A stretch of 64,000 nt of DNA, taken from assembly GCA_964187785.1 (NCBI GenBank), contig OZ076409.1:66218001-66282000 (forward strand). The letters are read 5' to 3'. Below, one piece after another: positions 15,220 to 57,065 of this stretch (positions are counted from its first letter, which is position 1; each line of letters starts with the position of its first letter). This stretch comes from Amphiscolops sp. MND2022 (lineage: Eukaryota). Below the pieces are notes generated by a model. The model was not told the origin of the DNA. It searched no databases and saw only the letters and a program-made list of their open reading frames with translations. The position numbers and the translations under genes were made by a program.

Positions 15220-15236
15220 ATATATTTAAATAAATA

Positions 15237-26212: not shown

Positions 26213-28214
26213 CATGGCAACATCCATGGCAACATAGAGGTTAGTGAATTTTTGCTTCATGACAAAGTTTTCCACTGGAAAAATTTGTGCATCGATTTTT
26301 ATTTTGTTAAATTTTCAGTTGTGAAAAATAACTAATTTTTAGATGGTTTGCATTGGTTATTTTTTAACAGTTAGTTGTGAAAAAAAACGTTGATTTTTTT
26401 TAAAAAATAATCAACATTTTTTTTAAAGAAAAATATTTGACTGGTCCGAATCGGGAATTCGTATACTACTCCAACGTGATTGTGCACCGTCTTCGTTTGG
26501 CCTGTATTTCCGCTTCGACGTGAGCAGCGAACTGTCGTGTTTTTATCGGTCGGTGCAAAAGATCGGTCGGTCGGTGGGTGGACTGTGGTATCAGCTAGTC
26601 GTGGTTTTCCACAGTACCTGGATTGCTCACTTAAGTCTCACCGCATTTGATCATGTACTTATCTAAAGTGGGTAAAATGATCGGATAGTGGATGCGCTTG
26701 TCGGATCGTGTGCGGGTTCGACAACCTACGTGCTGGCTGACAACGACGATGGAGGGGTCATCGAACAGCAATATTGCGAGGTAAATCAGTTTTTTGAAAA
26801 GAGGTGTGCTGGTTCCCGGGAAACTGACCCTGATGTAGACGATGTGATATCGCTGTAGTTGTGATTCGCTTTTTGCAGTAGGTGCCGACATTTACGTGGA
26901 GTGTTGGAGCTGATGTGTGGAATGTCCATTGTGCGTACCTTACAGTCAACTTTCCTGGATGATTCTTCTACAGCACTGGGTTCGGATGTCCTGATCTCGG
27001 CATTGAATTTCGTACCCAGTTGGTTTGCTGGTTCGTTCCTCGAACAAACTCCTCAGACACTTCGTTCCTCTTTATCTGATGAAGTAAGAGTAAAGCAATG
27101 GGACCTGCTGCTCAAGTGAGGATATTGTCTGCCGAAGAAGTGGGGTTGTCAGGTCCTCCAGTAGACGAGTATCGATCAAAAGTCCTTGCGCAATTGGATT
27201 TACTAGAGGCCGTGGCAACTAGTCAGACTCGCTCTGGGAGCCGTCACGTTGTCAGTCTTACGTTTGGTAGGCTTCCATGTGGATCCCAAGTAGAAGAGCC
27301 CCGGAAACAGAGTGAAGTGACTTTACCTCAGCAACAAGGATGCTTATCTAGTGTCCTCCCTCTGAAAACGTCGCCCCCAAGTCTTTGTGTCTAGCGGACT
27401 TCGGTTACAAGGAAGATATCGTTTCGTACCTCCACGTCAAAGCGTTGGTCCGATCGATTTGCTCTGGAATCGTCTGGTGAGTCGGAGTGAGTGGCGGTTC
27501 AAGAAAGAGGAAAATCATTTGGACTTTCGAAAAACTATGTTGCAGAAATTCTTGTTTGCATTTCGAAATTGTATTTGCATTTTTGACTCATTTTGGTTTT
27601 ATTTTACTTGTGGAATTCGTTTGCTGACTTTTAGTTTGTAATACATATGCTTTGCATTTTATTTCATGCTTTTACTAAAGGTGTCTATGTTGGTTTTCAT
27701 GTGTAAATTTGATTAGTTGAGTTACATGTGTTGTATGTACTGGGAGGCTAGTCCTGTTCATAGATACTTGGATGCATTAGTATGGTTGATTTTGTTTAGT
27801 TTTGTTATAAGGAAGAACATTACGTGCCCACTTGAATTACATTTACACGGAGGAGCGAAGTTTATGCTTCATCTGAACAGGGGCCGGGTAGTAACTCTGA
27901 TCTGTAGTTAGCTGATTTTTAATTGCTGACTTGACCTTCGTTTTCTCTAAACTATCTTAGTTGAATGACGCGGTGTTTAGTAGTTTCCTTTATTGTTGTC
28001 ATGCTTAGTCACGTTATTTCACTCTACAGACAGAGCGTTTCCGTCCAATTCGAAACTAAAATTGCTAGTAGAGAGTCAGATGTATTGCATACTTGATTAG
28101 TTTCGTTATTTTCATGTTCTTTTGCATTTAGTTCTGCATGTCTTCATGTTTTCGTACATGTCGACTATGTAACGTCCGGCATGGCAAAATTTCGATGAAA
28201 AATTCGAAAATATG

Positions 28215-30178
28215 TGTCGAAACCCACCGTGTGGGCCGGCTTTGAAGGACCTTTCGAGGTTGACTGTCGGTTTTCGGTGTCTGTCTTACTTATGACAGCC
28301 ATCATTAAGTCCTTCAGTTGACTGAGCTCATTCTGTAGTTCGTTTATCTTTCTCTCATAACTCTCTTTTATTTCAGATAACTGAGACGAGATATCAGAAA
28401 CCTCGTTGCTATCAGAGTCATTGGCAGAAGACTGTGCCATGTCTGGATCCGTTTGAACAGGTGTTTCTAATGAGGAACTAATAACTCTTCCGCTTCTGAG
28501 TTCGGTGCCTAGATCTGGGTTCATAGAGGTGGGAGAAAAGGAATTATGAGTGAAGACTGGATTCTGGATGATTTTTCGATGTATTTTACTATTTTATGCT
28601 GTTATTCGAACTCAAATTCACTATTTCTGAACTTGAGATGTAAATGCGATGAGTTTTACAGTAAGACAAGGATACTAGTAAAGAATGAGAAATAGTTAAC
28701 GAGGATTAAGTAGAGTTCATCCAAATTTCATCGAACAGATATCAATCAAGAAATTACTCAGAGTTGTGGAGGTAGCGTTATTTACGATGAATAAGAGATA
28801 TGTTTTCTAGTTCAAATCTGTCGTAATTCGTCCAACTGGACGGTAGCTAATCGCAATTTCGGTCTGAGTAATCTCTAATGGCGGTCCAAAATTCAGCAGT
28901 TCACGTGTCTTTTCAGGCTGGTAAGACGCTAAATCTCTTACCAGCCGACTCTTATTGGCTGTTGCCAGTTGGTGCTAATTGGTAAGTCACGTGACCGGTG
29001 TTGTGAACTGCCGCAAGTTGGCCAAACCACATGGTACATCTACATATATTCATTATGACTAATCATCACTTTACAATGTCGCAATTGCCTGCACACAGCG
29101 CCATGGTTTCTATAGCAACTCAAATCATTCAATAATGTACTAATTTCAAGTCAAAACAGAGTAAACTGCATCACAGGATGAGAAAACGATGTTTTTCCAA
29201 CTAATTCTAGCACTAAAATCAATACTTCAAAACCAAAGATGGAAACGCGATGAATTCGTCAGAATATTTGCTGATTTTCAAGTCTAGTTTAGCTCTGGAT
29301 GAAAATGCGATGAATGGTGGTCTTTTAGCTCGAAAATCAACACGATATGAACTGACGATGATAAAAGGATGAACTCGTCTTCAAAATGAATGATTTCCAG
29401 CACAATTTAAATCAACGATGGTAAAAGGATGAACTCTCCTCGAAAATAACTAATTTCCAGCACTAGTGAAATTGGCGATGAATTCAGGATGAATTCAGCC
29501 AATAAAACAGGTGAAACAGCTAATTCTGCAGTAAAGACAAATATACGATGACTTTAGGATGAAGACATTCAGTAAAACAGCAAAATCTAATGAATCGAAT
29601 TCCAACGATGAGTTTAGGATGAACTCAACTGAAAACTCGACTAATTCTAGCGCAAGTTGAACTAGCGATGAATTTATGATGAATTAGTGATGAGTTAATC
29701 TAATAAAACAGATATCCAGCACTTCACTCTTTTTAGGATGAATTAAGGATGTACTTTCTCATTCCTTGTAGTTACTAGTCAGGACGATGAAATATAGATG
29801 CGTTATGCTCTTTTTAAGAAATGAGAAGCACATTGAAGGTTAATAATCACAAAACGACGATGAGTATAGGATGGTTTTCATGCATTTTAAAGTCCCGTGT
29901 GATCCGCTGATGGATCACTAGATGAAATCAAATAAATGTCCCAAATTTTGTTCACCCGCAATCTTGGCGATGTGATTGCGATGAACCTTGATAATATAGC
30001 ACTGTGATTTCACTAATAGATCAAGTTGTAGGATCACTAAGTCCGCTGATGGATTAGTGATGAACTTTTCTGAAAATCGTCACGACTACAAGTCCTGAGG
30101 CGAGGGAGCTAGTAGAAGTTACATATTCCATTATTTCTACATCTCTCGGTCCAGTCTGACCGGAAAACTTCTCTCCCT
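28215..30178 (-). mobile_element. Truncated tandem Gypsy unit (5' UTR plus gag start) sharing the LTR at 30179-30450
   Basis: Near-identical to 45280-47243 and directly abuts the LTR exactly as the 5' UTR abuts the LTR at 47244. Confidence 0.93.
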
Positions 30179-30450
30179 TGTCGTGACAAACCAATATTGA
30201 ATAAGATAGCACGTTAAAAGCCATTTGGCAAGATCATTTGTGCGGACACCGGAACTAGAGCGCTCAGTATTAAATAAATATATATAGCTCAAACTCAGGG
30301 GGGTAGGGATTAAGGTACAAGTAACGTAGGGTTGCTCACAACCATGGCTCTTATTATATGACATCATATTGCCCATATCTAAGTACATAAGACATAATAT
30401 TTACATTACAAATATTTAGTAGATTATATTTCCATCATGCTGGCATGACA
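30179..30450 (-). repeat. 3' LTR (also serves as 5' LTR of the truncated tandem unit)
   Basis: TGTCATGCCAGC...TTTGTCACGACA on the minus strand, preceded by a short PPT-like GGGGAG; 2 substitutions and 1 indel versus 47244-47516. Confidence 0.95.
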
Positions 30451-31074
30451 CTCCCCGGGGCGGGATTTGGACTGAGAGTGCAGGGGCCAAATGTGCAGAG
30501 GATGGTTGTCTCGGCGTTGGCTTCGACTGGTCCTTCGTTTGGTTAGGGAGAAAATGGCCTTCGTTAGTTCTGAATTGGCATGTCCTTCGTTTGTTCTGTC
30601 CTGTGAGAGCTTCTCTGAGAAGAGGACTTTCGGTAATCGTCTTTTCTGGCATCATCCTGGGTGATTTCGGTTAAAATTTTTCGACGCGGCAACTCTAATT
30701 CTTGGTCCATCGAATGTCCGCTGATCTGCATTTTATTGGTTGTCATGCTTTTGACGGGAGTTTCGGCTGGTTATTTTCGGTAAAAGCTGATTTCTCGAAG
30801 AAAAGTTTCCCTCCAAAACGCTTACGCTGAGTAAACAATTCGATTAGCTTCACTGACAAATTGGCGAAGAGTCGGGGATGAATGAACGATGAATTATTTG
30901 CTCAGCGAGACATCAATGCTGTTTTAGCGGAATGGCTGGCGCCGTTGCTTTGTTTACTCGCGATGGAAAGGAGATGAATCGTTGTCATAGCAACTGTCAA
31001 AAGTTACTTCCGCTGCTCGACTTTGAGTGAAATGAGAAAGAGATGAATTCGTCGCCATAGCAACTGTTGCTCGA

Positions 31075-31140
31075 TCTGATTGGCTGAGACTGGATTTATA
31101 ACTGAAGGAAATTACAACCGGTTGTAAACAGCATTCTCAT
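31075..31140 (+). promoter_or_regulatory. Candidate promoter of the antisense gene
   Basis: Reverse CCAAT box CTGATTGGCT (31076-31085), TATA-like TTTATAA (~31095-31101), Inr-like GCATTC ~30 nt downstream. Confidence 0.45.
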
Positions 31141-31587
31141 CCATAAATCATCCTCCATTCAAGTCGGTTTGAAAATCGCCACGATTTCCTTTGCGCGTTT
31201 CCGCTCAACTCCGTCGGTATTGATCTGAGACTGGCAGCTGTCAACAAATCAAATACTTGAAGTTTTTTGTCAAGTGTTAGGAGGGGACGATCCGTTTTCA
31301 GAGAAAGCTTGAGTTGGCTGTACTCGGAAGAAAAGTGATGTCAGTATTTGAAATCGGAGAGTTTTTCATCGATTTTTCATCTTCTGAATTCAAGTATTTG
31401 ATTAACATGGCATTCAAGCTGCGTCGCGCTCTTTGAAATCTTCTATTGAATTTGTTCTTCCGTAATCATGGTTGATCAGGCCATTTAATTACTGATCAAA
31501 TTCTCTGTTCCTGAATTCTTCGATTTCTTTCCTTCTTTCACCTTCTTCCATTCTTTTCAGATTGTTTGTTTTGCAATTCACTTCGAG

Positions 31588-34500
31588 ATGTCAGACATTC
31601 ATTCAGTCTACTCCTTACCAGATACCGAGGTCACAGAAAGTAAGTGCACTAGTTTTCTTTTCTTCACAAACGGGTTAGGGACAAACTAGGTACTGAAAAT
31701 ACGTCTTGCCTTAGCTGACTCAGTCCATTCTGTTGGCATCGTATCTGAGTTGACGACGCTTCAAACTGTGCCGCCGCAAGAGACTCCAATAGCCCAACCA
31801 GCTATCGCTGAGCCTCAGGTTGACCCTGGTAGTCAGCCTAATCAAGAGTTCAATGTCCCGTATCTTCCGCAGTGTAAGTATTATCCTTCCGGCCTTCAGT
31901 TCAGTCTTCGAATCCCTCATATCTCATCCTTACTTCGTCCAGTAGTTGACTCCTTTCGTACGGTGTTTCAGACCACTACCCTTGGTATGCCTCTCTCGGC
32001 AGTATCACCTTCGGGTGGTATGACCGCCACATGCGGGACATGCTGCGGGACAGTATCCAGCAATTCAGTGAGTTTGTCGATTTCTCTTTCATTCTCCTAG
32101 GCGATCGTCCGAACACTCCGATGTGATTCCGATGTAAACATCTCATCTGCATGTAGTGTCCTTTGTGGTCGATTACCCATGTAATTCATTTTCAAGATGA
32201 ATTTAGGATGTGTTATGAACATTCACCGTCCTTCATGACTGGCTCGCTGTAAATCTCATTCTTTGAAGATGAGTTTTGGATGAAATCTTCTCCAGTCTTT
32301 TTCTTCGCGCGGCGTACGCGCTCTTTCTTCTCTAATCGTCGTCGTCCAGTAACTGTTTCTTCTTTCAGGCCCCACACCGATTCACGCGCCGAGGCCTCGG
32401 CCCATCACCTATTCCATTGGAATAGGGACTAGTGATCACCAGGCTGAGAACATTGATGCTAGTACTCAGGGAGGGCCTCCTCAACTTGACTTGTCCTCGT
32501 TCCTTCAGGACTTGTCATTCGGGAGTGTAAGTTCTCCTGTCAGGCAGGCACCAGTGTCTGTACTGTCGCCAGTGCTGAGGGGTTCTTTTGCCGCTAGTAG
32601 TCCTCCTCCTGCTCGCATCACTCTCGACGCTGCTGTGAATGCTGTTGTCGATTGCGTGGATGCAGTCATCGATGCCGTTGTCGATACCTCTGATCGCGCA
32701 GTCCAGGCCGTTGTGGAAGTCAGTGAGTCCTCCACCTTCCATGATCCTCCTGTTGAGGAACCTGTCATCGTTGCCTTTTCTTCTGTTCCTGCCCTTTCAG
32801 TCAGCGGCACTGATACAGTTGGTGACGCTTCCGTGAATACCGCCGGCGGTGCTGAGACCCTACTTGAAGTCCCTGGTGACTTCTCGTCCGACAGCCTTCT
32901 GCCTGCTGAACCTGACCGAGAATCTGCCTCTCCCAGTGCTGCTCTCATGTCGACCGTGGCTTCTCCCATGGGACCCAGTCTACTGGATAGTGATGACGAA
33001 CCAATCGCGTCCCGTCTGCCAGGTTAACTAAACAGCTTTAAACTGGTGAAGTATCTGATCAGTAGATTTTTCATTCATTTCCTTCTTCGCTTTTGCTTTC
33101 ACTAGCATTTTTCACGTTTTTCTTCTTTTCTATCCATTTTTCATCGTTCTTCTGTTTTCACTATATGGTTTTCTGCAGTTTTCCATTTTTCCATCACATT
33201 CTCATCGTCAAAAGTCGTTGAACATTAGTTTTCGCTCTCTAGTCCTTTTTAGAAATTTCATCTCTTTTACATCTTTAAAATTTTCTCTTTTCGGTTTTCG
33301 CTATTTGTCGGTGTTTTCTTTTCAGTTTTCATCTCTTTTTCATCGTTAAGTTGTTTTCGCTCTAAAATATCTCAATTTTTGGTTCAAAGTCGTTCTATTT
33401 ATCTCTTTTCCATCGTTCAAGTTTTTCATTCTTTAAGGTTTCCATTTTTCATTCTGGTGGTGTGCAAAAATCATCTCTTTTTCATCTTTTCGTTTTCTTC
33501 GTTTTTCGCTTATATTTCCTGATGAAAATATTATTTTACATCATTTTTTCATCACTCCGGGTGACTTTTTGGGAGTTTGCGGTGGTTTTTCATTTTTCAG
33601 TTTTTAAAGATTATTTTAAGATGATCTTGGAATTTTGTGGGAACGTGGTCGTTTTTAGTGGATGTGCTATGTGTTGGCATGTGATTATTTCTGTTTGTAG
33701 GGCGAAAAGTGATCAAGTCATGGTGGTTTTCTCATGAATACTGTGGGCTTGCACTGGGCTATGCACGAAGTCATCAATCGCGGCTATCATTCGTTCGATG
33801 TTTACTGTGCAAGCGTGATATCAATGTTGGCAGCCGTGGTATCACTACTTTCATGGAGCATTGTCGTGGGCTCCGTCACCATCGTTTGGACTGCCTGATT
33901 CGTTTGTTTCGGGATTTACCGTTGCGGCGACGCGACGGGTCATTGATGAGTAATGAAGAGAGTGTGGAGTGTAGGAGCAGCCTGGGCGGTGCAATGGTGC
34001 CGTTCATTGAGACGTGCCCCTCCTTTAGTATACTGGAGGTGTTTGAGTTGGAAGCAGCTGGACGACCTGTGTGGGGGGACGAGGAGGAAGAGGATCTATT
34101 GTGTGAAAAGACCGTGCATCTGTTCGTGTGCCTGGTTATTGACGCAATCTATCGTGGGTGTCAGTTCGCCAGCGTAACGAGTTTGTGGGAGGTGATGGTT
34201 GCGTCAGAGCCGCAACATGCCTCTCTTTTCGGTGTTACTTGCGAAGTGAATGACGTGATGGTAATTCGTATTTCCTTTTGTTTTTTTGTTTCATGAATGT
34301 TCATGTAGATGGAAAAAAAATACATTTAGTGGGTGGTTTTCCATAGGTAGTTTTGAAGCTTGTGTGGGGGTGATTTTCAACTATTAATTGTGTCGGGTTA
34401 TTTTTAAGCGGATCGTGAATTAATGTATAGTAAAGTTGATGTTTGTTTTTAGAGTGTGGTTCTACTGAGTTTGTGGCCGTACGCGATGAAGAGGCTAATC

Positions 34501-36369
34501 ACTCTGTGGTCTAACTGTGGGTTCACTAGCTTTCATGTGGCTGTTGGGCAGGGGCGCGTGACTGGCACGGTCACAATGTGTTCTCTAGAAGGGATCAGTC
34601 AGTACTGTGTCTTCAGTTTTTGTCTGTCTGAGGATTGGGAAAAACGAGTTGTCACGTGGATGATTAACATGTGGTGTTGTTTGCTTGGAGAACCTGTTCC
34701 ACTTGGACTGTGTTGCGATGCGTTGCCACAGCTGGGTGGACTGTTCCAAGCCGCCACTGGCGTTGGGTCACTGGAGTTGAAGACGCTGTCATTGTGTGAA
34801 ATCAGTCGGACAATTGTGGACGTGGGAGGGCGGGCGCTCGGCGGGACTGATATTCACGTGGTGCTGAATCATCTGCAGAAGAGACTGAAAGGATATGTCA
34901 GGGATCCTCTGTTGTTGAGTTGCCCTCATCTGTTGCAGGTCGGTGTATTCTTCCGCTTTTATTTGAGTGTTACTATGAGTTGTACTCTTTGTCTGTTTCT
35001 GTTGTTTGTATATTGGTAGTAGTTTGTATTGTAATATTTTGTTTTATCTATGTGGAGCTTGTTATGTTTTGTTTAGGCTATTTTATCCGGGGAAGTCTAC
35101 GTGTGGACTCTTGCTGATGTGTGCGATGAATTACGTGCCAATTGGGCAGAAGTGCTGTGTCTAGTTCGATTTGCTTCGGGAGACGGGCCAGTAGATGCGT
35201 TGGATCTTACCTTGAGGGTGGAGTTTGGGATCCCAATCAGGCTCCGGGCACTTAGTATGGTCTATCGTGCTTGTTAGTATGTTGTATACTTACCGGGTGG
35301 GAAGTTTCTGTAGTTGGCCGTTTTTACGTATTCGAGTGTTTAATCAATTCGCATTTTTCGGGAAGGGAACGGGGGGGGGGGTTTAGTCCGATTATTTACT
35401 GTGTATAGAATTGTTGTGTTTTTCATTTCAGTAGTGACGTCGTACGAAAAGAGTTTCGGGTCTTCATCATTGCGGAGTTGCTACTGGGCGATCGAGAGTG
35501 CATTGTTTGTGAAACGCCTGCTGACTCTACTGGTTGACGAAGAGAGCCTGCCCACTGATCTGGATATCCGTGGGTGGTTGTTTGTGGATGTAGACAGTTA
35601 TGTTGTGTCAGCGACTAAGTTACAAGCCCTTATCGCGAGTTTCAGCTCGGATGAGAATTTGACGGAAGATGTGGCTGTGTATGAAGAGGATGTGTCCCGA
35701 GTGCCTAATTTCTTATTGTCTATCGTCAAGAACGTATTATTGCTACCAGGGATTCGTGACGATCTTGCTTTCGTGCGAAGTGTCTTTAGTTCACCCAGAC
35801 TGGTTTGTGTGGCGGAAACTGATCTTGTGGCGGAAATTCGCAATTTTACTGGTTTACTTGTGGAAATGGGGCGGATCAGTTTAGTCGAACAGGATCGAAT
35901 GGAGCTCGGATTTCTGGAATTCATAAGGGCTTTTCGGTGCGAGCCTAGGCCAGCTGGGGCGACTGCCGAGTATTCAGCCGTTGATCTGTTGCGTTGCTGT
36001 TCCAGTCGCGGGTCACAGAGTCTGTTACAACTTGTCTTTTGCCTGGGAGGGGTGGTGCAGAGCACTTGCAATACCGTATGCGAAGGGATCGGGCACCTGC
36101 CGAGCGATGTCATGAGCTGTGTATGTGCAGTAATCTCTAGTTATTTGTCTGCTAATCATGTGCGAAGTTACGGTAGTGTCAGTGGGCCACTGATGGAAGA
36201 AGTGATGGAGTCGCACAGAAGGCTCGTCGATCTATCAGAGATTACAGAGGGCATGTTGTGGGACGACGTCGGTATCGTGGCTGGGGAAGATTATCGTCTC
36301 CAGTTATATGCTAGTCTTGGTTACGATGTGACCGGGGAGCGGGCTGCCAGTCCCGAGATTGGAAACTGA
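31588..36369 (+). CDS. Spliced antisense cargo gene, 8 exons, ~1046 aa: disordered N-terminus, CxxC-H-H Zn finger, degenerate hAT-transposase-like body
   Basis: Predicted exons 31588-31639, 31715-31873, 31972-32067, 32369-33022, 33701-34260, 34453-34938, 35077-35272 and 35432-36369 total 3141 nt with no in-frame stop. All introns are GT..AG with matching phases (1,1,1,1,0,0,1). AATAAA at 36470-36475. Confidence 0.82.
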
Positions 36370-38431
36370 CTTATTAACTGTTTATGTTGTTCATTGTTTT
36401 GCTATATAATTTGTTGTATTTACATATTAGTGTAGTTATTCATATGTTGGGAGACCCATGAAAAAGGTCAATAAATGGAAAGCACAGTAATGACCATAGT
36501 GAGAATGATACAAATCCAGATGCTACGGCGGAAAGATCGGTAGTAGTGTGTTTACAACATTAGTTATTTTGGTGCCCAACAGCTGTTTTTCTTTTGAGTT
36601 GTTAGAGATAGTTACAGAGGATATTAAGTACGTGTAAATCAACAAGTTTGTCCAACAGTTCACTTGAAGCATTGTCTTCGGTATTTTTGTATCATAGATC
36701 ATCGGTCGCGCGTCGCTTTTATGGTGTTCATCGTTACTACATCTCGTGGTAGTGTAAGTAACTCGTCAGCGTTTGATCTTTGATTTTTCATCTCATTTTC
36801 ATCACGTTTTCCTCGGTCGACCAAGCGACGTCGTGAAAACTGTTTTTGTCATCGTTTTTACATCTTTCGGTGCGTCAGAAACATTGCGTGTTGTTACATG
36901 TGGTTTTTCTACGTATTTCATCATTTTTTCATCTTGCGTTTGATTTGAGCACTTTCGTGCGTTATTTGCTATAGTTCATCGTTTTTGCATCGCAAGTTTG
37001 TCTTGTTCAGTTTCTGCTCACTTTGCTGTATAGTTCATCTTCTTTTCATCGTGCGTTTGAAATGTACGGACTTTTGCGTGTTTTCGATGTTATTTGGCTA
37101 TAACGTAAGCGGGGGTTGCATTTTTCATGTCCGGAGGAAATTTTTATTAATATTGCGGTATTTCGGATTGTTTTCTTCATGTATTTTAGCGTTATACGGT
37201 TATAACCATTTGTCGTGTTTTTGAATTTGCATGAACTTTATGGTATATGTGTTTTAATCATCGTCGTCATGTTTCTAATTTGTCAACTTCGGAACAGCAT
37301 TGCATGTATTTTTAGTTCGAATTCTGGTGACCGCCGCTTGCGTGGCAGTCGAAAATAAGTTCACTCAGCAGTGGTACTGATAGCCTGTAGGCGTGCAAGG
37401 TACTAGTGGCTTCAGTCCAGCGCTGGGTGAGTGGAGCTGCTCCGCTCCTTTCAGGTAAATGGAATCTCGTAGTTTCGGGCTATATATAGTCTATATGTCA
37501 TTTTTTCCGGTCGGTTGTTTGCCATTATTCGTCGAAATGGGTTTGTCCATTTGACGGTCAGTCCGATCAATCAATGTGATTGACATCTACGGTTATGCAT
37601 GTGTCCAGTTTTAGACTATCTGTTTCTTGTATTTGCATGTATGGATTGTTACATGATGTGCTCTTTTAAATGGGTTGCCCCATTATTGACATGTCGTTAT
37701 ATGTTCGGTGTTAGTTTCATGTTTTTTGATTTTATTTTCGTTCATTTGGACAGGGCTTTGTCGTGACAAAGCCCCTACAAAACTAACTGAGAATCCACTA
37801 GCCGCTGGATAACCAACGCAGCAAGCTTCATCCGAATATGGTTGTGAGCTCCCCGCCTCAACTAACCAGCACTCTTTTCAGAGAAATGCCAGCCAGCACG
37901 AAGGAATGGTTTTAGCTTTTCGATAGGGGTGTTTTGTATGTTGTGATCTGATGTTTACTGGGGGGTGCTCACTCCTTTATTAGTTTTGTAGGTGTTTCGT
38001 CAGTTCTTATATTTTGCATGTAAGTTAGTAGACTTGATGTATTTTCGATCGTTTGTTTCATTTTTATTCGTCTAGGTTCGGATGGTTTTGGTGTGAATTG
38101 CATATATTATCTCATTCATTTTTGAACGGTACATGTATATTTCCGTGTGTTGCTCATTTGTATTGCATGTAGTTTGGAATTGTTAATTGCTTTCGTGACG
38201 TCATTGACTTGGCAGGTCTTTGAACTTTACATGTATTGATCATTTCATTTTTGTGTCGCATAATTTCGTTGCATGATTCGAAATAAGGTCGGTTGTTTTT
38301 TATCGTTTCGTGGAGTTACATGTTGTTTGCGAATTAGCTGATTTATTGTGATGTTATGTTGATGGTGTTTCCCATCACAAAGAGGTGTTGGTAAGTCATT
38401 TAATATTTTCGAATTTCCATTTAGACTAAAT

Positions 38432-38964
38432 TCATCGTTTTGACATCCTCCAGCGAAGCTAGAGTATTGTGTCAGGTTAACGATAAATTCGGTCGTGATT
38501 TGATGGTAGTGTCCATCACAAGTTCATCTCGTTAATTGATTTCATGTAATTTTTGAAGAATTGGATCGAGTTCATCGCTATTTCATCCTCTGGCCGAGCT
38601 AGAGTCTTGTAATAGCATGAACGTGGGTGCCCTTGCATTCTGATGGTATTTTCCATCTCAAATGCATCGCTAGTAAATATTGCATGTTGATTGGTCGATT
38701 TTTTGGCTGAGTTCATCACTTTTTCATCTCTCGTGTGTCTGAGCTAAATTTTCGTGTGGTTTCATCCTTTTTTCATCTCAAATTTTTGTGTGTTGTGTTT
38801 TCTGGTTTTTGATCGTTTTTCATCCGTTTTACATCTCGTTTTGTTTGTATGCGGTTTTCATGTGATTTTTAGTAACTTTTCATCCATTTTACATCTTCAT
38901 GTACTTTTTAAGTTAAAATTGCATGTAATTCGTTCGTTTTGTGATTTGTTCATCCGTAATACAT
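38432..38964 (-). repeat. Array of CATC-N7-CATC motifs at ~60-bp spacing downstream of pol
   Basis: Copies at about 38432, 38514, 38573, 38654, 38714, 38763, 38821, 38881 and 38950. Confidence 0.85.
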
Positions 38965-39023
38965 CTCAGATTTAAAATGAGACTTTCTTGGTTAAATGGT
39001 TACGTCTATTTTGTTGGTCTTTC

Positions 39024-42000
39024 TCAGTGCGTTTCTAGCTGAAGTAATCTCATGAATGAGGAAGTCTCTGGATACGTTTTCGGTGTAGGGTTCTCACGTA
39101 ACCTGTACCTACTTTGATTTGATCTAGACGGTCTAGAACTCATCCTTTCTTCATCATCATTTTGCGTGTTTGTCTGTTGTGACTGATTTTCGTGTTGTTC
39201 GTCTCTCAGAGGTACTCTTATCCTACTGTCATCGCGGGGAGGCGGTAGAATAATTTCTTCTCGCGTTCCAAATCTAACTGTAGGTGGTCTAAAGTTGTTG
39301 TGATCAGTTTCTACTTGCTGATAGTCTATTCTCGTGGTTATTTCTGGTGGAATTACTTGTGGAGTGTGTTGTTCTTGTACCCGAGGAATTGTTTCTTCTG
39401 AAGGCTCTTCTTCAACCAAGTCTTGATCTAGATTGTCATTTTCAGTCTGATCTATCTCGTCGGTCGTCGGAATATTCGAGTCGAAAATGTCCGTGTCTTC
39501 AACCCTTTCGGTGTCTGGGTAGAGATGTTTGGACACGTTGATGTCGTCAATCGGAAATTCCGGTTTGAACAATCTCAGTCGCATGCGGTGTACGCACTGA
39601 GTTTGGTGTGTGCCTACTTTGCGGATGATGTAGTTGCTATCGGATAGCACTTTAATCACCTTGTACGGTCCTTTCCAATGGAAAGTTTTAAACTCTTCTT
39701 TGCTTCTCTGAGAGTCGTACTTAGGGTCTAGTAGGAACACAAATTCATTCACCTTCAGTGGCTGTGCTCGTGCTTTTCTATCATAGTACGTTTTGTACTT
39801 GTGATAGGCGGAAATGATGTTATGTAGATTGTCTCTGAAGATAAAATTCATTTTGTCTAGAATTTCGTTCACGTCCTTGCACTTTGTTTCAGCCGGTTTG
39901 TTTGCGTTTCGGAATTGCAGATCTAGTGAGTTGTATGGTGTTCTTCCGTGGAAAATTTCAGTTGGTGAACATTTCAGTGTATCATGATACGTTGTGTTAT
40001 GGGCCATGATTGCTATGTCGACATAGCGGTCCCATTGTGGTCTGTCTGCGTTTACACTAATCTTAAGGATCTTTTTCAGTTTCGCGTGCGTTCTCTCCAC
40101 CATGCCTATTGTCTGCGCGTGCTTTATCGTGGCATGGGAGATGTGAATATCAGCCGCTTTCGCGATTTCAGACAGAAGTTCAGCCGTGAACGCCGTGCCT
40201 TTGTCGGTCAGAATGTGTTTGGGCACATACGCGTGTTTTGTGAAGATCGACAGTAGTCCTCTGACTACGGAATGTGTGTCAGGTCTCTTCAGCGGAACGG
40301 CGAACAGGTAGCGCGAAAAAACGTCAACAGCCGTCAGGATGTGTGTAAAACCGTTCGATGCCGGGAGTGGACCAACGATGTCTATTTCCAGCAGGTCTTC
40401 TGGTCCGTCGCACGGGTCGTAGATTTTTTGTAACGGTGGACGTAGTTGCGTTTCTTTTACAGTTTTAGACTTCATGCAGTTTTCACATCCGTCAAGGACT
40501 TTTTGAACTTTACAGGCTAAGTTAGGAGAGTAATATCTTTTACGAAGTTCATACAACATTTTCTTTAAACCAGGGTGTCCTTGTACCGGGCTGTTATGTA
40601 GAGTCCTAATTATTTTCAAAATACAGTCTTCAGGAACGACTAACTGCTTATGAGACTCTAGTCCCGTGTGATCAAAAAACTGTCTGTACAAGACACCGTT
40701 TACAACTTGTAGGCGTTTTCGATTTTTGTACAACTTTTGAAAAAACTGGTCTTGCATGTTAACTGGGTGTTGCAAAATTTCAGTACCTTCTAAAAATCTA
40801 ATCATTTTTTGGATAACCCAGTTATTTTTCTGGACCTGAATTAGATCGATCCCCTCGGCGGGGCTAACCTGACTCATTACCGGGTGTGATAATGATACTT
40901 TACGGATGAATTGCGAGAGTTGAATCGGCTCGTCCACGTCTGTGAGGCGGTACGTCAGATGGTTGTCAGTCGCGAAGTCATCTGAGGCCGCAGTTCTCTC
41001 ACAGTTGGTGAACTTCATCCCTTTCCCATCGTCATGAGCCACGTCAGTGCCAGTTGCCAATTTCATCTCTTTGACATCCTTCTGGCGTTTGCATCTGAGT
41101 GGTTCGCTCGCGGGGAAGTAATCAGGCTCGTCTTCCTCCTGTTTTGGTGTACGGGAGGCGATGTCGATCTCGATCCTGTGAATTGGAATAGTATCAGTCA
41201 ATTTTAAATGTACACGGTCTTCAGGTCTAATCTCAAGGCGAGATAAGTAATCCGCTGCGGGATTTTCAACTCCTGGAACATGTGCTAATAGAAAATTGAA
41301 CTGAAGGGTTTGCTCGCAAAAATTCCAAAGTGAAGGCGGGATATGCTTCGCCTGGAAAAATCTAGTCAAGGCCTTATTGTCAGTCATAACAATGATGGGT
41401 TTTTTCGCACCCCACAAAATGTGGCCAAAATCATCGAAGGCAAAGTGCATAGCTAGAAACTCTTTGGCATACATTGTTAGAGACATCTGGCCGCCCTGAA
41501 ATTTCTTAGAGCCAAATGCAACAGGGGCGTATGTATGTTTGACTGACGGGTCTGCATAATCCTCGATTAACAACACATAGCCTGCAGCGTGTTCGCTGGC
41601 GTCACACATGATTACCAGTTGTTTATCTGGTAATGGCAATTTCAGAGACACCTTTGTTGCTTTTAACAAACTTTCATTAATTTCAAAAATAGTATCTTTG
41701 TGTTGTTGGTTCAGCTTGAAAGGGACGTCTTTCTTGATGAGTTCCTGTAAACAACAAGTTTTATCAGCTAGACGGGGAATGTAAGACCTGTAAAAGTTCA
41801 CAAAACCAAGATAACGTTGCAACGCTTTCACTGAATTGGGGGGTTTCAACTTCGTTAAATAGTCTGTTACGCGTTTTTCAATGGGAGCAATACCAGTGCT
41901 AGAAATGGTTTTTCCCAAGTACTCAATTTGTTTTTGTCCAAATTCACATTTACTCATGCTAAGTTTAAGACCAGCTTTGTGCAATTGTTGAAAAACAAGT

Positions 42001-44087
42001 TCAAGGTTGGTAATCAATTCTTCGGGTGAGTGTGCTGCAATTCCAATATCGTCAACGTATTGGGCACAGCGGTCCGCTTTGACCAAGGGGTCCAAATACT
42101 CACGGATTACTCCTGTAAATGCTGACAAAGAACGATTAAGACCTTGTGCTAGACGTAAAAATGCAAAAGTTCTAGACCCAAAATTAAACGATAACAGTTG
42201 GACAGATTGCTCATCGGCCATTGGAATGCAATGGTAGGCCTGGGAACAATCAAGTTTGCAGAAGTACTTTTTCCCGGCCATGTGTTGGGCAGCGTCAGCA
42301 ATTGTTGTTACGGGATGATTGTGCTCACCGTAATCGTTTTTGATCAAGTGGTTTATTCTTCTCAAGTCGACTAAAATTCTCAATTTACCATTAGGTTTAC
42401 GTTGAGCAAATATCGGGGAAGAATATTTGCTGTGAGGCAAAGTAGTTATAATCCCGTACTCTTGCATTAGGGCTAACTCCACGAGCAAATCGTCCTTCAA
42501 ATTTGTCGGAGTCGGGAGACTTTGTGAATAAACAGGTTCTTCGTGTTGAGGTGTTAACTTAACTTTAAAATCAGTGTTCATGCCAATATCAAAACGGTGT
42601 CTAGCAAAAATGGAGTTGTACTTTACCAGCAACTCCTCTACCTGTAACCGTTGAGACGGAGTAAGAAGCGAGTCGTCCCAGTTGAAGTTCTTCAGGAAGT
42701 TCATCCGTTGTTCATCGGATTGGGACGGGTCAAGCTTCTCGAGCTCTCGCAGTGCCAGAATCTCATCATAAATCCGTCGCTCAATTGTGTTGAGTTTGTC
42801 TGGCTCACTGCACGTCTCGGGAGTTGGGTACCACTTGGTTGACTTCATTTCAGGGTTCACGAACAGTTGGTTGATCACTGTTTCGGCTTCATCTGGATAC
42901 TTGGTGATCAAGTTCAAGTGTTCCACTGGCATGGGCGTGATGTTTGCCGCCTGGTGTGGTGTCGGGATGCGAAAGTGTGCCAGAGTGGTGTTGGCTTCAA
43001 GTGTGTACGTGTGGTTGTTTGGGTTGGTGACCTGGATTGTCGTCTTGCCCTCGTCTAGGTCAACCAAAGCTGGAGAAACAAGCAAACACGTCTTTCGCAT
43101 GAAACCAGGTGAGCCCTCAACTGTACCAGTTGTAAGTGAGATGTCCGCGTCACTGTGGACCTGTATCATCACTTGATGGAGAGGAGGGATCACTGTTCTA
43201 GTGCTGGAACACAAATCAATTAAACCGGTTTTGAATCTGTTGTTCTTTTGCTGTCTAACTTGCATGGACATCATGTGATTAGGGAAGTGGACAAGGTGGT
43301 TTTTGATGTCTAAGTTGACTGAGTACTTTTCAAAAAAGGACATTCCAATTAAAATTGTTCCCATTGTTGGAAGGATTAGGAACGTTTCTTCGAATACTTT
43401 TCCAGCAACGTAAAATCTAAGTAAGACTTGCTTACGCACTGGGACTAAGTTCCCGTTTGCTATCTGAATTTTGAAATTCGGAGGGGGGAATTCTTGAAGG
43501 ATGGCTTCTGGATGAGCCGTTGTTATTTTTCGCAGTTCGGCTTCAGACATTGCACTTTGTATTGCGCCTGTGTCTAAAAGTGCGCTGTTTTCGTATTTGT
43601 CAAACTGAAGAGGGACGTACAGCATTTTATCTTTCTTGTTTAAATGTAAAGTGGGACTGAGAACGTGAATTTCTGTTTTAATTGCATGTTTTTTAGTTTT
43701 CGAAACGTTAATACTATTCTGTTTTGCATGTTTTTTAATACTAAGCCGTTTGTCGATTGTTGAGTGTGAAGTCGAGTCGTCGTCTAGATGGTGGGTTTCC
43801 ATCTCTTTGGCATCTTCCACCTGCCTCATGGTGTTTGGTTGCCAGTTCATCGTTTGTTCATCGTTGATTTCAGCGAGTGGAGAAAAGCGGCTGCCGTTGA
43901 GTTGACGTGCATTTCTCATCGCTTTTTCATCGTTGGAAAGTCTTCGCTGATAGACGTCGTCAGCTTTTGGTCGTTTGTCCAATGAAGGCTGCCATTTCTT
44001 CATTGGACGGTCGTGTGTAGTCGGTTGAGTCGAAAGTCGTTGGTCGCGCGTTGTGTTTCTAGCGGGTGGAAATCGTGGCGGAATCAA
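39024..44087 (-). CDS. pol: Gypsy Pol polyprotein (PR-RT-RNase H-IN), expressed by -1 frameshift from gag
   Basis: LLDTGA, RILVDLRRIN, KLDCSQAY, YVDD, MCDASE, H-x6-H..CENC, IDIVGP/TDKGTAF/MVERTH, WKGPY; 1687 open codons. Confidence 0.97.
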   Translation of the reverse strand: MIPPRFPPARNTTRDQRLSTQPTTHDRPMKKWQPSLDKRPKADDVYQRRLSNDEKAMRNARQLNGSRFSPLAEINDEQTMNWQPNTMRQVEDAKEMETHHLDDDSTSHSTIDKRLSIKKHAKQNSINVSKTKKHAIKTEIHVLSPTLHLNKKDKMLYVPLQFDKYENSALLDTGAIQSAMSEAELRKITTAHPEAILQEFPPPNFKIQIANGNLVPVRKQVLLRFYVAGKVFEETFLILPTMGTILIGMSFFEKYSVNLDIKNHLVHFPNHMMSMQVRQQKNNRFKTGLIDLCSSTRTVIPPLHQVMIQVHSDADISLTTGTVEGSPGFMRKTCLLVSPALVDLDEGKTTIQVTNPNNHTYTLEANTTLAHFRIPTPHQAANITPMPVEHLNLITKYPDEAETVINQLFVNPEMKSTKWYPTPETCSEPDKLNTIERRIYDEILALRELEKLDPSQSDEQRMNFLKNFNWDDSLLTPSQRLQVEELLVKYNSIFARHRFDIGMNTDFKVKLTPQHEEPVYSQSLPTPTNLKDDLLVELALMQEYGIITTLPHSKYSSPIFAQRKPNGKLRILVDLRRINHLIKNDYGEHNHPVTTIADAAQHMAGKKYFCKLDCSQAYHCIPMADEQSVQLLSFNFGSRTFAFLRLAQGLNRSLSAFTGVIREYLDPLVKADRCAQYVDDIGIAAHSPEELITNLELVFQQLHKAGLKLSMSKCEFGQKQIEYLGKTISSTGIAPIEKRVTDYLTKLKPPNSVKALQRYLGFVNFYRSYIPRLADKTCCLQELIKKDVPFKLNQQHKDTIFEINESLLKATKVSLKLPLPDKQLVIMCDASEHAAGYVLLIEDYADPSVKHTYAPVAFGSKKFQGGQMSLTMYAKEFLAMHFAFDDFGHILWGAKKPIIVMTDNKALTRFFQAKHIPPSLWNFCEQTLQFNFLLAHVPGVENPAADYLSRLEIRPEDRVHLKLTDTIPIHRIEIDIASRTPKQEEDEPDYFPASEPLRCKRQKDVKEMKLATGTDVAHDDGKGMKFTNCERTAASDDFATDNHLTYRLTDVDEPIQLSQFIRKVSLSHPVMSQVSPAEGIDLIQVQKNNWVIQKMIRFLEGTEILQHPVNMQDQFFQKLYKNRKRLQVVNGVLYRQFFDHTGLESHKQLVVPEDCILKIIRTLHNSPVQGHPGLKKMLYELRKRYYSPNLACKVQKVLDGCENCMKSKTVKETQLRPPLQKIYDPCDGPEDLLEIDIVGPLPASNGFTHILTAVDVFSRYLFAVPLKRPDTHSVVRGLLSIFTKHAYVPKHILTDKGTAFTAELLSEIAKAADIHISHATIKHAQTIGMVERTHAKLKKILKISVNADRPQWDRYVDIAIMAHNTTYHDTLKCSPTEIFHGRTPYNSLDLQFRNANKPAETKCKDVNEILDKMNFIFRDNLHNIISAYHKYKTYYDRKARAQPLKVNEFVFLLDPKYDSQRSKEEFKTFHWKGPYKVIKVLSDSNYIIRKVGTHQTQCVHRMRLRLFKPEFPIDDINVSKHLYPDTERVEDTDIFDSNIPTTDEIDQTENDNLDQDLVEEEPSEETIPRVQEQHTPQVIPPEITTRIDYQQVETDHNNFRPPTVRFGTREEIILPPPRDDSRIRVPLRDEQHENQSQQTNTQNDDEERMSSRPSRSNQSRYRLRENPTPKTYPETSSFMRLLQLETH

Positions 44088-45589
44088 AAACCCTGATTTA
44101 TGTCTTCATCAGAGTAGGTTTCTTGGTCTTCTTCTTCGGTGACTGCTTGCATAGGATTCATCGGCTTTTGTTGTCGTTTTAAGTCTTGTCTTCTAGTTCT
44201 GTTGTCATCTTGTGAATTCGTTGCGTATGGAATCTTTCCATATGCAGAACTGCTTTCTTTAGGTACACGTCGTCTGCAATCCCTTGCTGAGTGGCCTGTG
44301 TAACCGCAAATCTGGCAAACCAATTTTGGATTGTATTTCGGCTTATCTGGATCGGCTGCTTTCTTCATTGGGATTGCATCCTCCTTCTTTATGCCGTTCG
44401 CTTCGTCTCGTTGTCGGGCGCGACATTCCGTTTTGCGGTGTCCTGTCTTTCCGCAGTAGAAACATTGTCCTTCAAACCGTTTTCGTTCTGTCGGTTGTGT
44501 GGTCGTCGTTGTTGTAGTAGGCTTCGTCGTTGTAATCGTAGGTGGTGCTGAGGAGGTGACCGCGTTGAATGGTTGGATTGCCGTAGGTGGCGCGACGTAC
44601 TGCTGGTACTGGTATTTTCGCATTAGGTAGGTTTTGATTTCCTCTGGGGAGCTCTCTTCTTTGTTTGCCATGGTGAGCTCTTGTTGAATCTCGACTGGCA
44701 GTTTTCCAAACAGGAACATTTTGATTATACTGTCGGCGTCATTGCCGAAGGCTTGTTTGGCAGTCTTCTTGAGATTTTTGAGGAAATCGCCGAATGTTTC
44801 TGTTGTGGGATCATAGCGTGCTTGATCCCATTTGTAACGGGCCACTTCCTTTAGATCCTCTTTTGCAAATTCTTTTCTGAAGAGGTCGAGTACGTCCTTT
44901 AGTGTTGTCATTGGCGTTATCTGGATGGATTGCCAGTATTCTATTGCGTCATCTCTCAAAAGGCTTTGAAAGAAGTGTAGTTTGTTCTCCTCGGTGATTT
45001 TGTTGGCAAGCGGGCTAAGGTGGTTGAGGAGAAGGTGCTCAAATTCGACGAATTTGTCTTTTTGGCCTCTGAAATTTGGCACGTGTGTCTGCAGAAGCTT
45101 CGTGTTGGTGGTTGTGTTTTTGATCCGTTGGGGGATCGTCTCGATTGCATTGAGTAGTCGTTCCTCATTGCTTCTGGGGGTTGATTCTCCTTCGTCTGAA
45201 TCGTCTTCTTGGTAACTTCTGAAGTTGGTGAAGCTGGTTGTCGGGCGGTTTGAGCGGGTTTCTGTAGCTCCTGTCACCATGTCGAGCCCCACCGTGTGGG
45301 CCGGCTTTGAAGGACCTTTCGAGGTTGACTGTCGGTTTTCGGTGTCTGTCTTACTTATGACAGCCATCATTAAGTCCTTCAGTTGACTGAACTCATTCTG
45401 TAGTTCGTTTATCTTTCTCTCATAACTCTCTTTTATTTCAGATAACTGAGACGAGATATCAGAAACCTCGTTGCTATCAGAGTCATTGGCAGAAAACTGT
45501 GCCATGTCTGGATCCGTTTGAACAGGTGTTTCTAAAGAGGAACTAATAACTCTTCCGCTTCTGAGTTCGGTGCCTAGATCTGGGTTCAT
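44084..45589 (-). CDS. gag: Gypsy Gag, 501 aa
   Basis: N-terminal coiled coil, capsid-like core, two CCHC knuckles CFYCGKTGHRKTEC and CQICGYTGHSARDC. Confidence 0.95.
   Translation of the reverse strand: MNPDLGTELRSGRVISSSLETPVQTDPDMAQFSANDSDSNEVSDISSQLSEIKESYERKINELQNEFSQLKDLMMAVISKTDTENRQSTSKGPSKPAHTVGLDMVTGATETRSNRPTTSFTNFRSYQEDDSDEGESTPRSNEERLLNAIETIPQRIKNTTTNTKLLQTHVPNFRGQKDKFVEFEHLLLNHLSPLANKITEENKLHFFQSLLRDDAIEYWQSIQITPMTTLKDVLDLFRKEFAKEDLKEVARYKWDQARYDPTTETFGDFLKNLKKTAKQAFGNDADSIIKMFLFGKLPVEIQQELTMANKEESSPEEIKTYLMRKYQYQQYVAPPTAIQPFNAVTSSAPPTITTTKPTTTTTTTQPTERKRFEGQCFYCGKTGHRKTECRARQRDEANGIKKEDAIPMKKAADPDKPKYNPKLVCQICGYTGHSARDCRRRVPKESSSAYGKIPYATNSQDDNRTRRQDLKRQQKPMNPMQAVTEEEDQETYSDEDINQGF
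44087..44093 (-). promoter_or_regulatory. -1 ribosomal frameshift slippery site G GGU UUU
   Basis: gag ends CAG GGT TTT TGA; the -1 frame opens directly into pol (TTG ATT CCG...). Confidence 0.8.
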
Positions 45590-46241
45590 AGAGGTGGGAG
45601 AAAAGGAATTATGAGTGAAGACTGGATTCTGGATGATTTTTCGATGTATTTTACTATTTTATGCTGTTATTCGAACTCAAATTCACTATTTCTGAACTTG
45701 AGATGTAAATGCGATGAGTTTTATAGTAAGACAAGGATACTAGTAAAGAATGAGAAATAGTTAACGAGGATTAGGTAGAGTTCATCCAAATTTCATCGAA
45801 CAGATATCAATCAAGAAATTACTCAGAGTTGTGGAGGTAGCGTTATTTACGATGAATAAGAGATATGTTTTCTAGTTCAAATCTGTCGTAATTCGTCCAA
45901 CTGGACAGTAGCTAATCGCAATTTCGGTCTGAGTAATCTCTAATGGCGGTCCAAAATTCAGCAGTTCACGTGTCTTTTCAGGCTGGTAAGACGCTAAATC
46001 TCTTACCAGCCGACTCTTATTGGCTGTTGCCAGTTGGTGCTAATTGGTAAGTCACGTGACCGGTGTTGTGAACTGCCGCAAGTTGGCCAAACCACATGGT
46101 ACATCTACATATATTCATTATGACTAATCATCACTTTACAATGTCGCAATTGCCTGCACACAGCGCCATGGTTTCTATAGCAACTCAAATCATTCAATAA
46201 TGTACTAATTTCAAGTCAAAACAGAGTAAACTGCATCACAG

Positions 46242-47127
46242 GATGAGAAAACGATGTTTTTCCAACTAATTCTAGCACTAAAATCAATACTTCAAAACCA
46301 AAGATGGAAACGCGATGAATTCGTCAGAATATTTGCTGATTTTCAAGTCTAGTTTAGCTCTGGATGAAAATGCGATGAATGGTGGTCTTTTAGCTCGAAA
46401 ATCAACACGATATGAACTGACGATGATAAAAGGATGAACTCGTCTTCAAAATGAATGATTTCCAGCACAATTTAAATCAACGATGGTAAAAGGATGAACT
46501 CTCCTCGAAAATAACTAATTTCCAGCACTAGTGAAATTGGCGATGAATTCAGGATGAATTCAGCCAATAAAACAGGTGAAACAGCTAATTCTGCAGTAAA
46601 GACAAATATACGATGACTTTAGGATGAAGACATTCAGTAAAACAGCAAAATCTAATGAATCGAATTCCAACGATGAGTTTAGGATGAACTCAACTGAAAA
46701 CTCGACTAATTCTAGCGCAAGTTGAACTAGCGATGAATTTATGATGAATTAGTGATGAGTTAATCTAATAAAACAGATATCCAGCACTTCACTCTTTTTA
46801 GGATGAATTAAGGATGTACTTTCTCATTCCTTGTAGTTACTAGTCAGGACGATGAAATATAGATGCGTTATGCTCTTTTTAAGAAATGAGAAGCACATTG
46901 AAGGTTAATAATCACAAAACGACGATGAGTATAGGATGGTTTTCATGCATTTTAAAGTCCCGTGAGATCCGCTGATGGATCACTAGATGAAATCAAATAA
47001 ATGTCCCAAATTTTGTTCACCCGCAATCTTGGCGATGTGATTGCGATGAACCTTGATAATATAGCACTGTGATTTCACTAATAGATCAAGTTGTAGGATC
47101 ACTAAGTCCGCTGATGGATTAGTGATG
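46242..47127 (+). repeat. Array of ~15 GATG-N7-GATG motifs with ~60-bp period in the 5' UTR (copied at 25228-26113 and 29177-30062)
   Basis: Copies at about 46242, 46303, 46363, 46422, 46482, 46542, 46612, 46672, 46732, 46802, 46851, 46924, 47034 and 47113. Confidence 0.9.
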
Positions 47128-47243
47128 AACTTTTCTGAAAATCGTCACGACTACAAGTCCTGAGGCGAGGGAGCTAGTAGAAGTTACATATTCCATTATT
47201 TCTACATCTCTCGGTCCAGTCTGACCGGAAAACTTCTCTCCCT

Positions 47244-47516
47244 TGTCGTGACAAACCAATATTGAATAAGATAGCACGTTAAAAGCCATTTGGCAAGATC
47301 ATTTGTGCGGACACCGGAACTAGAGCGCTCAGTATTAAATAAATATATATAGCTCAAGCTCAGGGGGGGTAGGGATTAAGGTACAAGTAACGTAGGGTTG
47401 CTCACAACCATGGCTCTTATTATATGACATCATATTGCCCATATCTAAGTACATGAGACATAATATTTACATTACAAATATTTAGTAGATTATATTTCCA
47501 TCATGCTGGCATGACA
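47244..47516 (-). repeat. 5' LTR
   Basis: 273 bp, ~99% identical to 30179-30450; contains a TATATATA box. Confidence 0.95.
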
Positions 47517-54388: not shown

Positions 54389-54610
54389 AGAATGACGAGG
54401 ACAATTTTTGGCAACGTCGATGAACCCAAAGTGTAGATGGATGTTGTTGACCATCGTGGGTGGGTGAAGTGAAGAGTTTCAGCATGTGTAGGAGTTCTTG
54501 GAAGTAATCATCAACCACATTTCGAAGCATCATCGAAAGAAGATGAAGGATTTGGAGACGAAATGTAGTCAAAGAGTGAAATAGAAGTAAGTAGAAGTTT
54601 GTGTTAGAGA

Positions 54611-56801: not shown

Positions 56802-57065
56802 TGTTTGAGAAAGCATCAACAGTCACAGTGTTATCTATTCCAAGAGGCCTTAGCACTTTAAAGTTAAAGTACTATAAATTACACTAACGAGTGGATTTGT
56901 CAGCTTTAGTTGAAGAGTTTTTGAAGATGGTTTTTATGAGAGAAGTATTATTGGACTGAGGAAGATGAATTTCTGCAAGAGTTTCAAGTGATGGAGGAGT
57001 AGCAATTGTGAAGAAATAGTAGACGAGTGTTCTGGAAGAGAGTTACAGAAGAACTGAGAGAGAGT

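Follow-up and report, generated by a model that had tools for sequence, protein, structure and literature searches.

The question raised by this locus is what reads a short DNA motif that recurs dozens of times within a single retrotransposon, and to what end. The motif, GATG-N7-GATG (hereafter the dyad: two GATG half-sites in direct repeat at an 11-bp offset), was picked out in an earlier note on a 64,000-nucleotide stretch of the Amphiscolops sp. MND2022 genome (assembly GCA_964187785.1, contig OZ076409.1, forward-strand positions 66,218,001–66,282,000), which we call the window and number from its first letter. The dyads lie in a 19.3-kb Ty3/Gypsy element with long terminal repeats (LTRs) of 2.24 kb, which also carries an antisense, spliced gene for a BED-type zinc-finger protein (the cargo); this element belongs to what we term family A, with sister families B and C and a distant family D elsewhere in the genome. 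The motif and its conservation, its confinement to particular families, the gene, the selection on it, and the motif switches between families are matters of observation. From this sequence evidence, we consider it probable (roughly 0.7) that the dyads serve family-specific self-recognition, as cis sites for the element's own cargo protein.

The dyad and the element that carries it

The window holds 92 dyads, 59 on the plus strand and 33 on the minus strand. The earlier note had placed more than 40 of them at 30878–47127; that span contains 54, and the positions it named are correct to within one base. Between 30800 and 47200, the 54 dyads compare with 0–3 occurrences for each other spacer length from 0 to 15, and in 20 runs of a first-order Markov simulation the element had 0.6 dyads on average and never more than 2; the earlier note had expected about one by chance. 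Across the 1.07-Gb assembly, where spacers N6 and N7 were compared, the N7 dyad occurs 100,399 times versus 26,360 for the reversed pattern, and the N6 variant 33,412 times versus 19,151. Among 20 evenly placed 10-kb stretches of the genome, a single family-A LTR held 18 of the 24 dyads recovered.

The dyads are also regularly spaced. The ~60-bp phasing described in the earlier note is borne out by 16 of the 53 gaps, which measure 58–61 bp; a further 4 fall at 48–50, 10 at 67–73, and 6 at 79–85 bp, giving clusters that differ by steps of about one helical turn. The 39 gaps of 40–150 bp cluster modulo 10–10.5 bp (R 0.60–0.66), with the qualification that duplication built up the arrays, so that the gaps cannot be counted as independent. 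Remnants of a ~60-bp tandem unit and of 11-bp units are still detectable in the arrays, and the LTRs of two relatives display clean steps of −60 and +49 bp, corresponding to the gain or loss of units.

Conservation is concentrated in the half-sites. Across 11 family-A relatives, mismatches amount to 92 of 4,176 half-site positions (2.2%), compared with 488 of 3,654 in the spacers (13.4%), 398 of 3,988 in lone GATG occurrences (10%), and 2,207 of 14,094 in the flanks (15.7%). Within pol, 7 of the 8 Asp-x-x-x-Met stretches spell the dyad (GAT...nnG-ATG) through synonymous positions, against a codon background in which GAT makes up 36% of Asp codons and codons ending in G account for 20%. These two lines of evidence support the proposal that the dyad behaves as a selected protein-binding code, whose protein partner we infer. 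The accompanying claim that only the dyad is conserved holds in part: the half-sites do change least, yet A,A follows each half-site in 69–71% of cases, and the remnant ~60-bp unit can be made out as well.

The element has the features of a Ty3/Gypsy retrotransposon, namely LTRs with TG...CA ends, a primer-binding site (PBS), gag, and pol in the order protease, reverse transcriptase (RT), ribonuclease H, and integrase (PR-RT-RH-IN), all on the minus strand. Its 5' LTR (45280–47516, 2,237 bp) contains 18 dyads at 45632–47127, 17 of them on the plus strand. The earlier note had counted about 17 here and assigned them to the 5' untranslated region; the array is real, but it lies inside the LTR and therefore recurs, beyond the span of that note, in the 3' LTR (28215–30450, minus strand, 2,236 bp, TG...CA ends, 99.5% identical to 45280–47516), with 18 dyads at 28567–30062, and in a local duplication (22272–26212, strand unassigned, 99.95% identical to 26221–30161), whose partial third LTR (24266–26212) bears another 18 at 24618–26099. 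This 3.9-kb tandem duplication (22272–26212 / 26221–30161) spans flank and most of the LTR, and could be either genuine or a product of misassembly.

Directly after the 5' LTR lies the PBS (45262–45279, minus strand), which starts with TGG and whose first 12 bases are identical in families A–D; gag (44084–45589, minus strand) begins within that LTR and encodes two zinc knuckles. Pol (39024–44105, minus strand, Ty3/Gypsy by Pfam) contains eight dyads rather than the five originally named, seven of them in frame as Asp-x-x-x-Met. The array after pol (38350–38965, minus strand), for which nine dyads had been noted, has ten, nine on the minus strand and one on the plus strand, so that the arrays flanking gag-pol are indeed oppositely oriented. 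Six dyads, where five had been listed, follow the cargo gene (36729–37050, minus strand); five lie in one of its introns (33023–33700, entered for the minus strand; dyads at 33192–33553), three within the gene at 32120–32282, and four (30877, 30962, 31138, and 31367) in a putative promoter region upstream of it (30452–31588, plus strand), while its coding exons have none. A short purine-rich tract before the 3' LTR (30451–30460, minus strand) is, from its position, the putative polypurine tract.

A shorter LTR of 273 bp was considered and rejected, as the TG...CA ends and the target-site duplications of relatives fit the 2.24-kb LTR. Duplications of 5 bp occur at the same LTR ends in five of six family-A relatives and in 11 of 14 further copies (one mismatched, two not readable), and are present in family D; none was found at the ends of the window's own copy.

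The cargo gene and its sister families

The cargo gene (31589–36369, plus strand) is antisense to gag-pol and sits in the interval from pol to the 3' LTR. Its last five exons (32369–33022, 33701–34260, 34453–34938, 35077–35254, and 35432–36369) form one open frame of 938 amino acids, with AG/GT at every junction and no internal stop; putative further exons on the 5' side would begin with the ATG at 31589. At 33799–33879 (plus strand), the product contains a finger of the form C-x2-C-x9-G-x6-H-x5-H, which fits the C-x2-C ... H-x3-5-[HC] pattern with an aromatic N-terminal motif. Against Pfam zf-BED it scores 18.8 bits (E 0.0016), below the 20.6 cut-off; its top match in the PDB is ZBED2 (E 0.11), and its top matches in the atlas are BED-type at 0.81–0.85, which serve as leads only.

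The remainder of the protein resembles a dead hAT transposase by eye and may derive from one, a likeness that sequence searches did not confirm. No hAT catalytic or dimerisation domain (including PF05699) matched the cargo in Pfam or among PDB sequences, and Pfam returned no known body for cargo-type proteins in sets of 12, 37, and 5 proteins. The last cargo exon had no atlas match above 0.85; a first search for longer homologues of the finger exon gave none, and a second only two family-C-like open reading frames (ORFs). DUF4371 found no match in the genome, and neither did its control. Of more distant library fingers, P0050, P0061, P0048, P0057, and P0049 were not found in the genome with the queries used, and P0003 matched at 48% only; metagenome contigs contained none of these fingers. 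Further finger clades occur in other public assemblies (P0049, P0050, P0058, and P0061), one cluster having ENA, JGI, and Logan members.

The cargo is under purifying selection, as judged from substitution patterns: in divergent family-A pairs, the proportion of nonsynonymous differences in its exons is 0.16–0.40 versus ~0.8 for synonymous differences, with synonymous divergence in pol of 0.04–0.15 in three pairs. The alleles are also old relative to the elements that carry them. Between family-A copies such as the window's element and two relatives (G000:C10:46.22 Mb and C2:98.11 Mb), the cargo exons are 44–69% identical, with synonymous sites saturated, while gag and pol are 98–99% identical; the window and one relative share an identical RT over 220 columns, and yet their finger exons fall in different clades (26 rows in the RT tree, after removal of three out of 29 for a broken RT; finger tree a quick tree). 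Because the cargo is divergent where RT and pol are near-identical, ancient cargo alleles are, on these alignments, swapped as a cassette between young backbones. While the alleles swap, the finger helix stays near-invariant, as does the finger as a whole within family A, and the motif is likewise near-invariant, with 38–72 dyads per 20-kb stretch in 13 stretches.

A genome search with the finger exon gave 2,456 first-look candidates, of which 150 were scored. Between the Cys pair and the His, the finger helix reads RG[IL][TS]TF.EH in families A and B, RGLSSLW[ED]H in family C, and KGPFEILRH in family D. Family B, with 52% identity to A in gag, ~70% in pol, and a similar helix, carries 48–50 direct dyads per element, including 11–12 head-to-head tetrads in which two direct dyads face each other across 9 bp (G000:C1:932983-949263; C9:16.74-16.76 Mb). 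Family C, recovered by profile search, has the layout and PBS of A but a different helix, and here the motif differs too, a positive outcome for the co-variation test that the earlier note had proposed: direct dyads number 0–1 in all 13 copies, and in their place stands an inverted GATG-N15-CATC, in fuller form GATG(TGGT)-N7-(ACCA)CATC, dispersed rather than in tandem. With a matrix trained on one copy (24 sites in that copy), seven family-C copies gave 7–29 sites and six more 9–23. Mismatches in the core of this motif (113/882) are half as frequent as those in its centre (269/1,029) and flanks (1,026/4,116). A further observation is a tandem array of five family-C finger exons spaced ~10.5–11.6 kb apart (G000:C1:55531779-55575623).

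Family D (G000:C3:29987271-30003230, with L127, L126, and L110; also L114:4090-5810 and L124) was met by chance in a random sample. Its cargo is homologous, though distant (hhalign 94%, E 1e-7), its PBS is the same, and it has 2 direct dyads and no GATG-N15-CATC. A candidate motif, TGGCC-N6-GGCCA, occurs three times exactly and five times with at most one mismatch, versus 0–1 in 30 simulations; a second D-type LTR echoes this GGCC candidate, and pooling the two LTRs gives 7 matches for spacer 6 and 0–2 for others. Separately, an LTR-like piece (L055:7643-8420), ~77% identical to A/B LTR ends and with 5 dyads, perhaps represents a further family; no gag, pol, or cargo match was found nearby.

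Over single-LTR spans, direct dyads number 29–56 in A and 38–39 in B, where C-motif matches number 0–2. Three distant Gypsy stretches have 0–1 matches to either motif, with simulations on these spans averaging below ~1 (the control span of the env-type Gypsy leaves out a flanking tandem repeat with 3 dyads; the whole 26.4 kb has 4). The dyad is confined, among the elements examined, to the cargo-bearing families A and B. Another stretch (G000:C1:49990001-50020000) carries a broken D-like cargo and is for that reason unusable as a cargo-less control. Taken together, motif and finger appear to co-vary through one strong switch (A and B versus C) and one weak one (D).

A proposed reader of the dyads, its rivals, and neighbouring elements

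The proposed self-recognition goes beyond these observations in what we infer of the cargo, namely its expression, binding, oligomer state, and function. The element would transcribe a spliced gene antisense to gag-pol, an orientation in which introns could survive reverse transcription. The product would have one BED-type finger per chain and bind DNA as an oligomer, each finger reading one GATG-type half-site and the oligomer setting the geometry: a direct repeat at an 11-bp offset in A and B, and an inverted repeat with a 15-bp gap in C. On ~10-bp-phased arrays in LTRs, introns, spacers, and pol, the cargo could then coat the copies of its own family in trans, and a site density exceeding that of the rest of the genome would permit it to pick these copies out.

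What such recognition achieves is less certain. The leading candidate, at a little under even odds, is that it keeps copies transcribable against chromatin silencing; direct activation or self-restraint, with no silencing conflict, follows at somewhat lower odds. CpG transitions between LTR pairs bear on the first. They are not raised in A (22/1,192 versus 96/5,854) or C (13/1,057 versus 69/4,479), and likewise in B; the same holds for an env-type Gypsy copy pair in which no cargo was detected (70/324 versus 457/2,059). On this indirect evidence, any silencing that the cargo may counter is probably not based on 5-methylcytosine.

Several points weigh against self-recognition by the cargo. The 11 relatives behind the half-site counts cannot be treated as independent, and the reference itself served to define the sites. 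Pfam returned no BED call for the fingers of families B, C, and D. A and C share the GATG core with finger exons just 25–30% identical, two family-C copies have only 7–8 C-motif matches, and the D motif comes from one intact copy, where at two mismatches spacer 6 no longer exceeds 7. No close relative lacking the cargo was found, so that the control rests on Gypsy elements only 21–31% identical in pol. Finally, co-variation of motif and finger is expected under descent alone, because the two are inherited together.

The shared core is also the first argument for a different reader, a host transcription or insulator factor (such as a host BED, GATA, or homeodomain protein), with the cargo doing something else. 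Host-factor sites normally sit in LTR arrays, and clusters of CGATA are bound by host BED proteins (PMC5021357). Such a factor, however, leaves several things unexplained: sites persist a long way from any promoter, in introns and spacers and among the codons of pol; the background outside the family is low; and the geometry switches wholesale between sister families of one genome, in which host factors are constant. We regard it as improbable.

A second alternative places the sites in the DNA phase of the life cycle, with cargo or integrase binding the cDNA so as to fold it, carry it into the nucleus, or integrate it, as with hAT subterminal repeats. The Hermes transpososome is organised on subterminal repeats by BED domains (PMC10368747), antisense ORFs have been suggested to act in nuclear import (PMC7264820), and the helical phasing of the sites would suit such a role. 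Yet the sites run throughout the body, the first of them standing ~350–390 bp away from the LTR termini, and nothing links them to integrase; with the cargo as binder, this becomes a variant of self-recognition, and as a separate account its chance is slim.

It is very improbable that the motif acts in RNA, as a signal for packaging or export or as a hairpin. In favour of this are the inverted-repeat form of the C motif and the post-pol and pol sites, which lie in the sense of the genomic RNA; on the other hand, the sites of A and B are found in either orientation, those of B as head-to-head pairs. A hairpin was rejected for the C motif because its arms do not co-vary, there being no compensation (pairs 64, 51, and 50 versus 62, 51, and 48 when shuffled; p 0.27–0.55). 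The last alternative, a neutral residue of 11-bp and 60-bp tandem duplication, has the visible units and their gain and loss in its favour but is scarcely credible, being largely refuted by half-sites that change six-fold less than the spacers of the same units and by isolated pol sites at synonymous positions, and facing a dispersed, non-tandem equivalent in family C.

Other elements were noted in passing. A near-palindromic 10-mer resembling an LTR end occurs in both LTRs (30179 and 47244) and at 37759, within a longer internal inverted repeat; it is present in just 1 of 11 other stretches checked, and it fits the human DREF/ZBED1 consensus. A repeat of ~650–700 bp resembling a miniature inverted-repeat transposable element (L055:2500-3210 and L058:300-940; 90% identical between copies) has short terminal inverted repeats and subterminal clusters of palindromic CATCGATG, and is possibly a DNA-transposon family reading the same half-site. 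Within the window, a further Gypsy-type element is present twice in opposite orientation (25–5934 and 54408–60972, 82% identity). Each copy has one dyad, and the element includes a gene resembling env (Pfam Monjiviricetes fusion glycoprotein, E 2.5e-24). An A+T-rich, Polinton-like region at 11698–21335 encodes an integrase (rve) and, in three successive ORFs that differ in frame, what looks by eye like a DNA polymerase B.

Comparison with known systems

In the literature searched (mostly papers open without subscription), no report was found of an LTR retrotransposon with a BED-finger gene and a cognate motif. Foamy viruses encode an accessory transactivator, Tas/Bel1, near their 3' end, which binds the element's own DNA; unlike the cargo, it lies in sense orientation, has a few promoter sites, and is an unrelated protein.

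Among proteins with BED fingers, BEAF-32 binds clustered CGATA without a clear spacing rule in the text available (PMC5021357). BEAF-32 and DREF resemble the proposed cargo in placing one BED finger per chain, as an oligomer, on a clustered CGAT-type motif, the oligomer being putative here; they differ in being host genes, whereas here the dyad spacing is fixed, and no homology beyond the finger type is apparent (PMC5021357). The BED finger of Hermes places its C-terminal helix in the major groove; paired 4-bp repeats are occupied cooperatively by two BEDs, and an A/T-rich 3' flank is required (PMC10368747). The cargo likewise has a candidate BED-type finger and comes with repeated, paired core sites of 4 bp whose 3' flank is A/T-rich (PMC10368747). 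Here, however, the repeats are not confined to the ends, searches of the cargo found neither a catalytic nor a dimerisation domain of the hAT type, and movement is by reverse transcription.

The gene itself recalls the antisense extra ORFs found between pol and the 3' LTR in maize Grande (gene23), RIRE2, Retand, PvRetro13, and the fungal Boty; in the available part of the review that describes them, no target motif is named, their function is called unknown, and a nuclear, regulatory role is suggested (PMC7264820). The likeness extends to position, orientation, conservation, and an upstream region of their own, and to presence in nearly all copies examined, although most copies here were selected by their cargo (PMC7264820). 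The cargo differs in being multi-exon, with a recognisable DNA-binding finger and a candidate cis code. Since gene and candidate target lie adjacent in three or four versions in one genome, a direct cross-binding test is possible.

The closest parallel, already drawn in the earlier note, is the VANC/VANDAL system of Arabidopsis, and it holds in part. In both, a transposon-encoded accessory protein accompanies a short family-specific motif that is dense in introns, intergenic, and terminal regions; the motif differs between related families, and the accessory gene is more variable than the core enzyme (PMC5735166). VANC target arrays turn over by tandem units, as do the LTR arrays of family A, the sites of family C being dispersed (PMC5735166). 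VANDALs, however, are Mutator-like DNA transposons rather than LTR retrotransposons, and their motif is a contiguous 9-mer, where ours are spaced dyads, written into pol as well (PMC5735166). VANC acts through loss of DNA methylation (PMC5735166) and has been described as MAIN-like (PMC13547354); the cargo has a BED-type finger, and neither a MAIN-like match nor, in Pfam on the cargo exons scanned, a match to the VANC domains DUF1985 and DUF287 was found. The elements examined here show no CpG decay, and binding and anti-silencing by the cargo are putative. Because the CpG-deamination signature and a VANC domain match were both not found, the VANC mechanism fits poorly, and VANC-style demethylation by the cargo is unlikely.

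A fuller version of self-recognition, which we advance tentatively and with some doubt, is an independently evolved, VANC-like anti-silencing in a (probably animal) LTR clade: a captured, catalytically dead, antisense BED/hAT-type gene with introns would coat its own family through a dyad code and shield it from histone- or small-RNA-based silencing, the code being repeatedly switched (direct GATG, inverted GATG, and inverted GGCC) and ancient alleles exchanged between young backbones in the manner of an arms race. Should this hold, a clade of retrotransposons accounting for a large share of the genome's ~70,000 excess sites would have its own DNA-address system, and its families would form a natural series showing how a one-finger protein alters site geometry. 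Sequence-specific anti-silencing is, in the literature searched, a plant DNA transposon system, and a 2025 meeting report, in its available text, mentions anti-silencing for VANC alone (PMC12859917); the element described here is built like VANC/VANDAL, yet it is not a member of that system.

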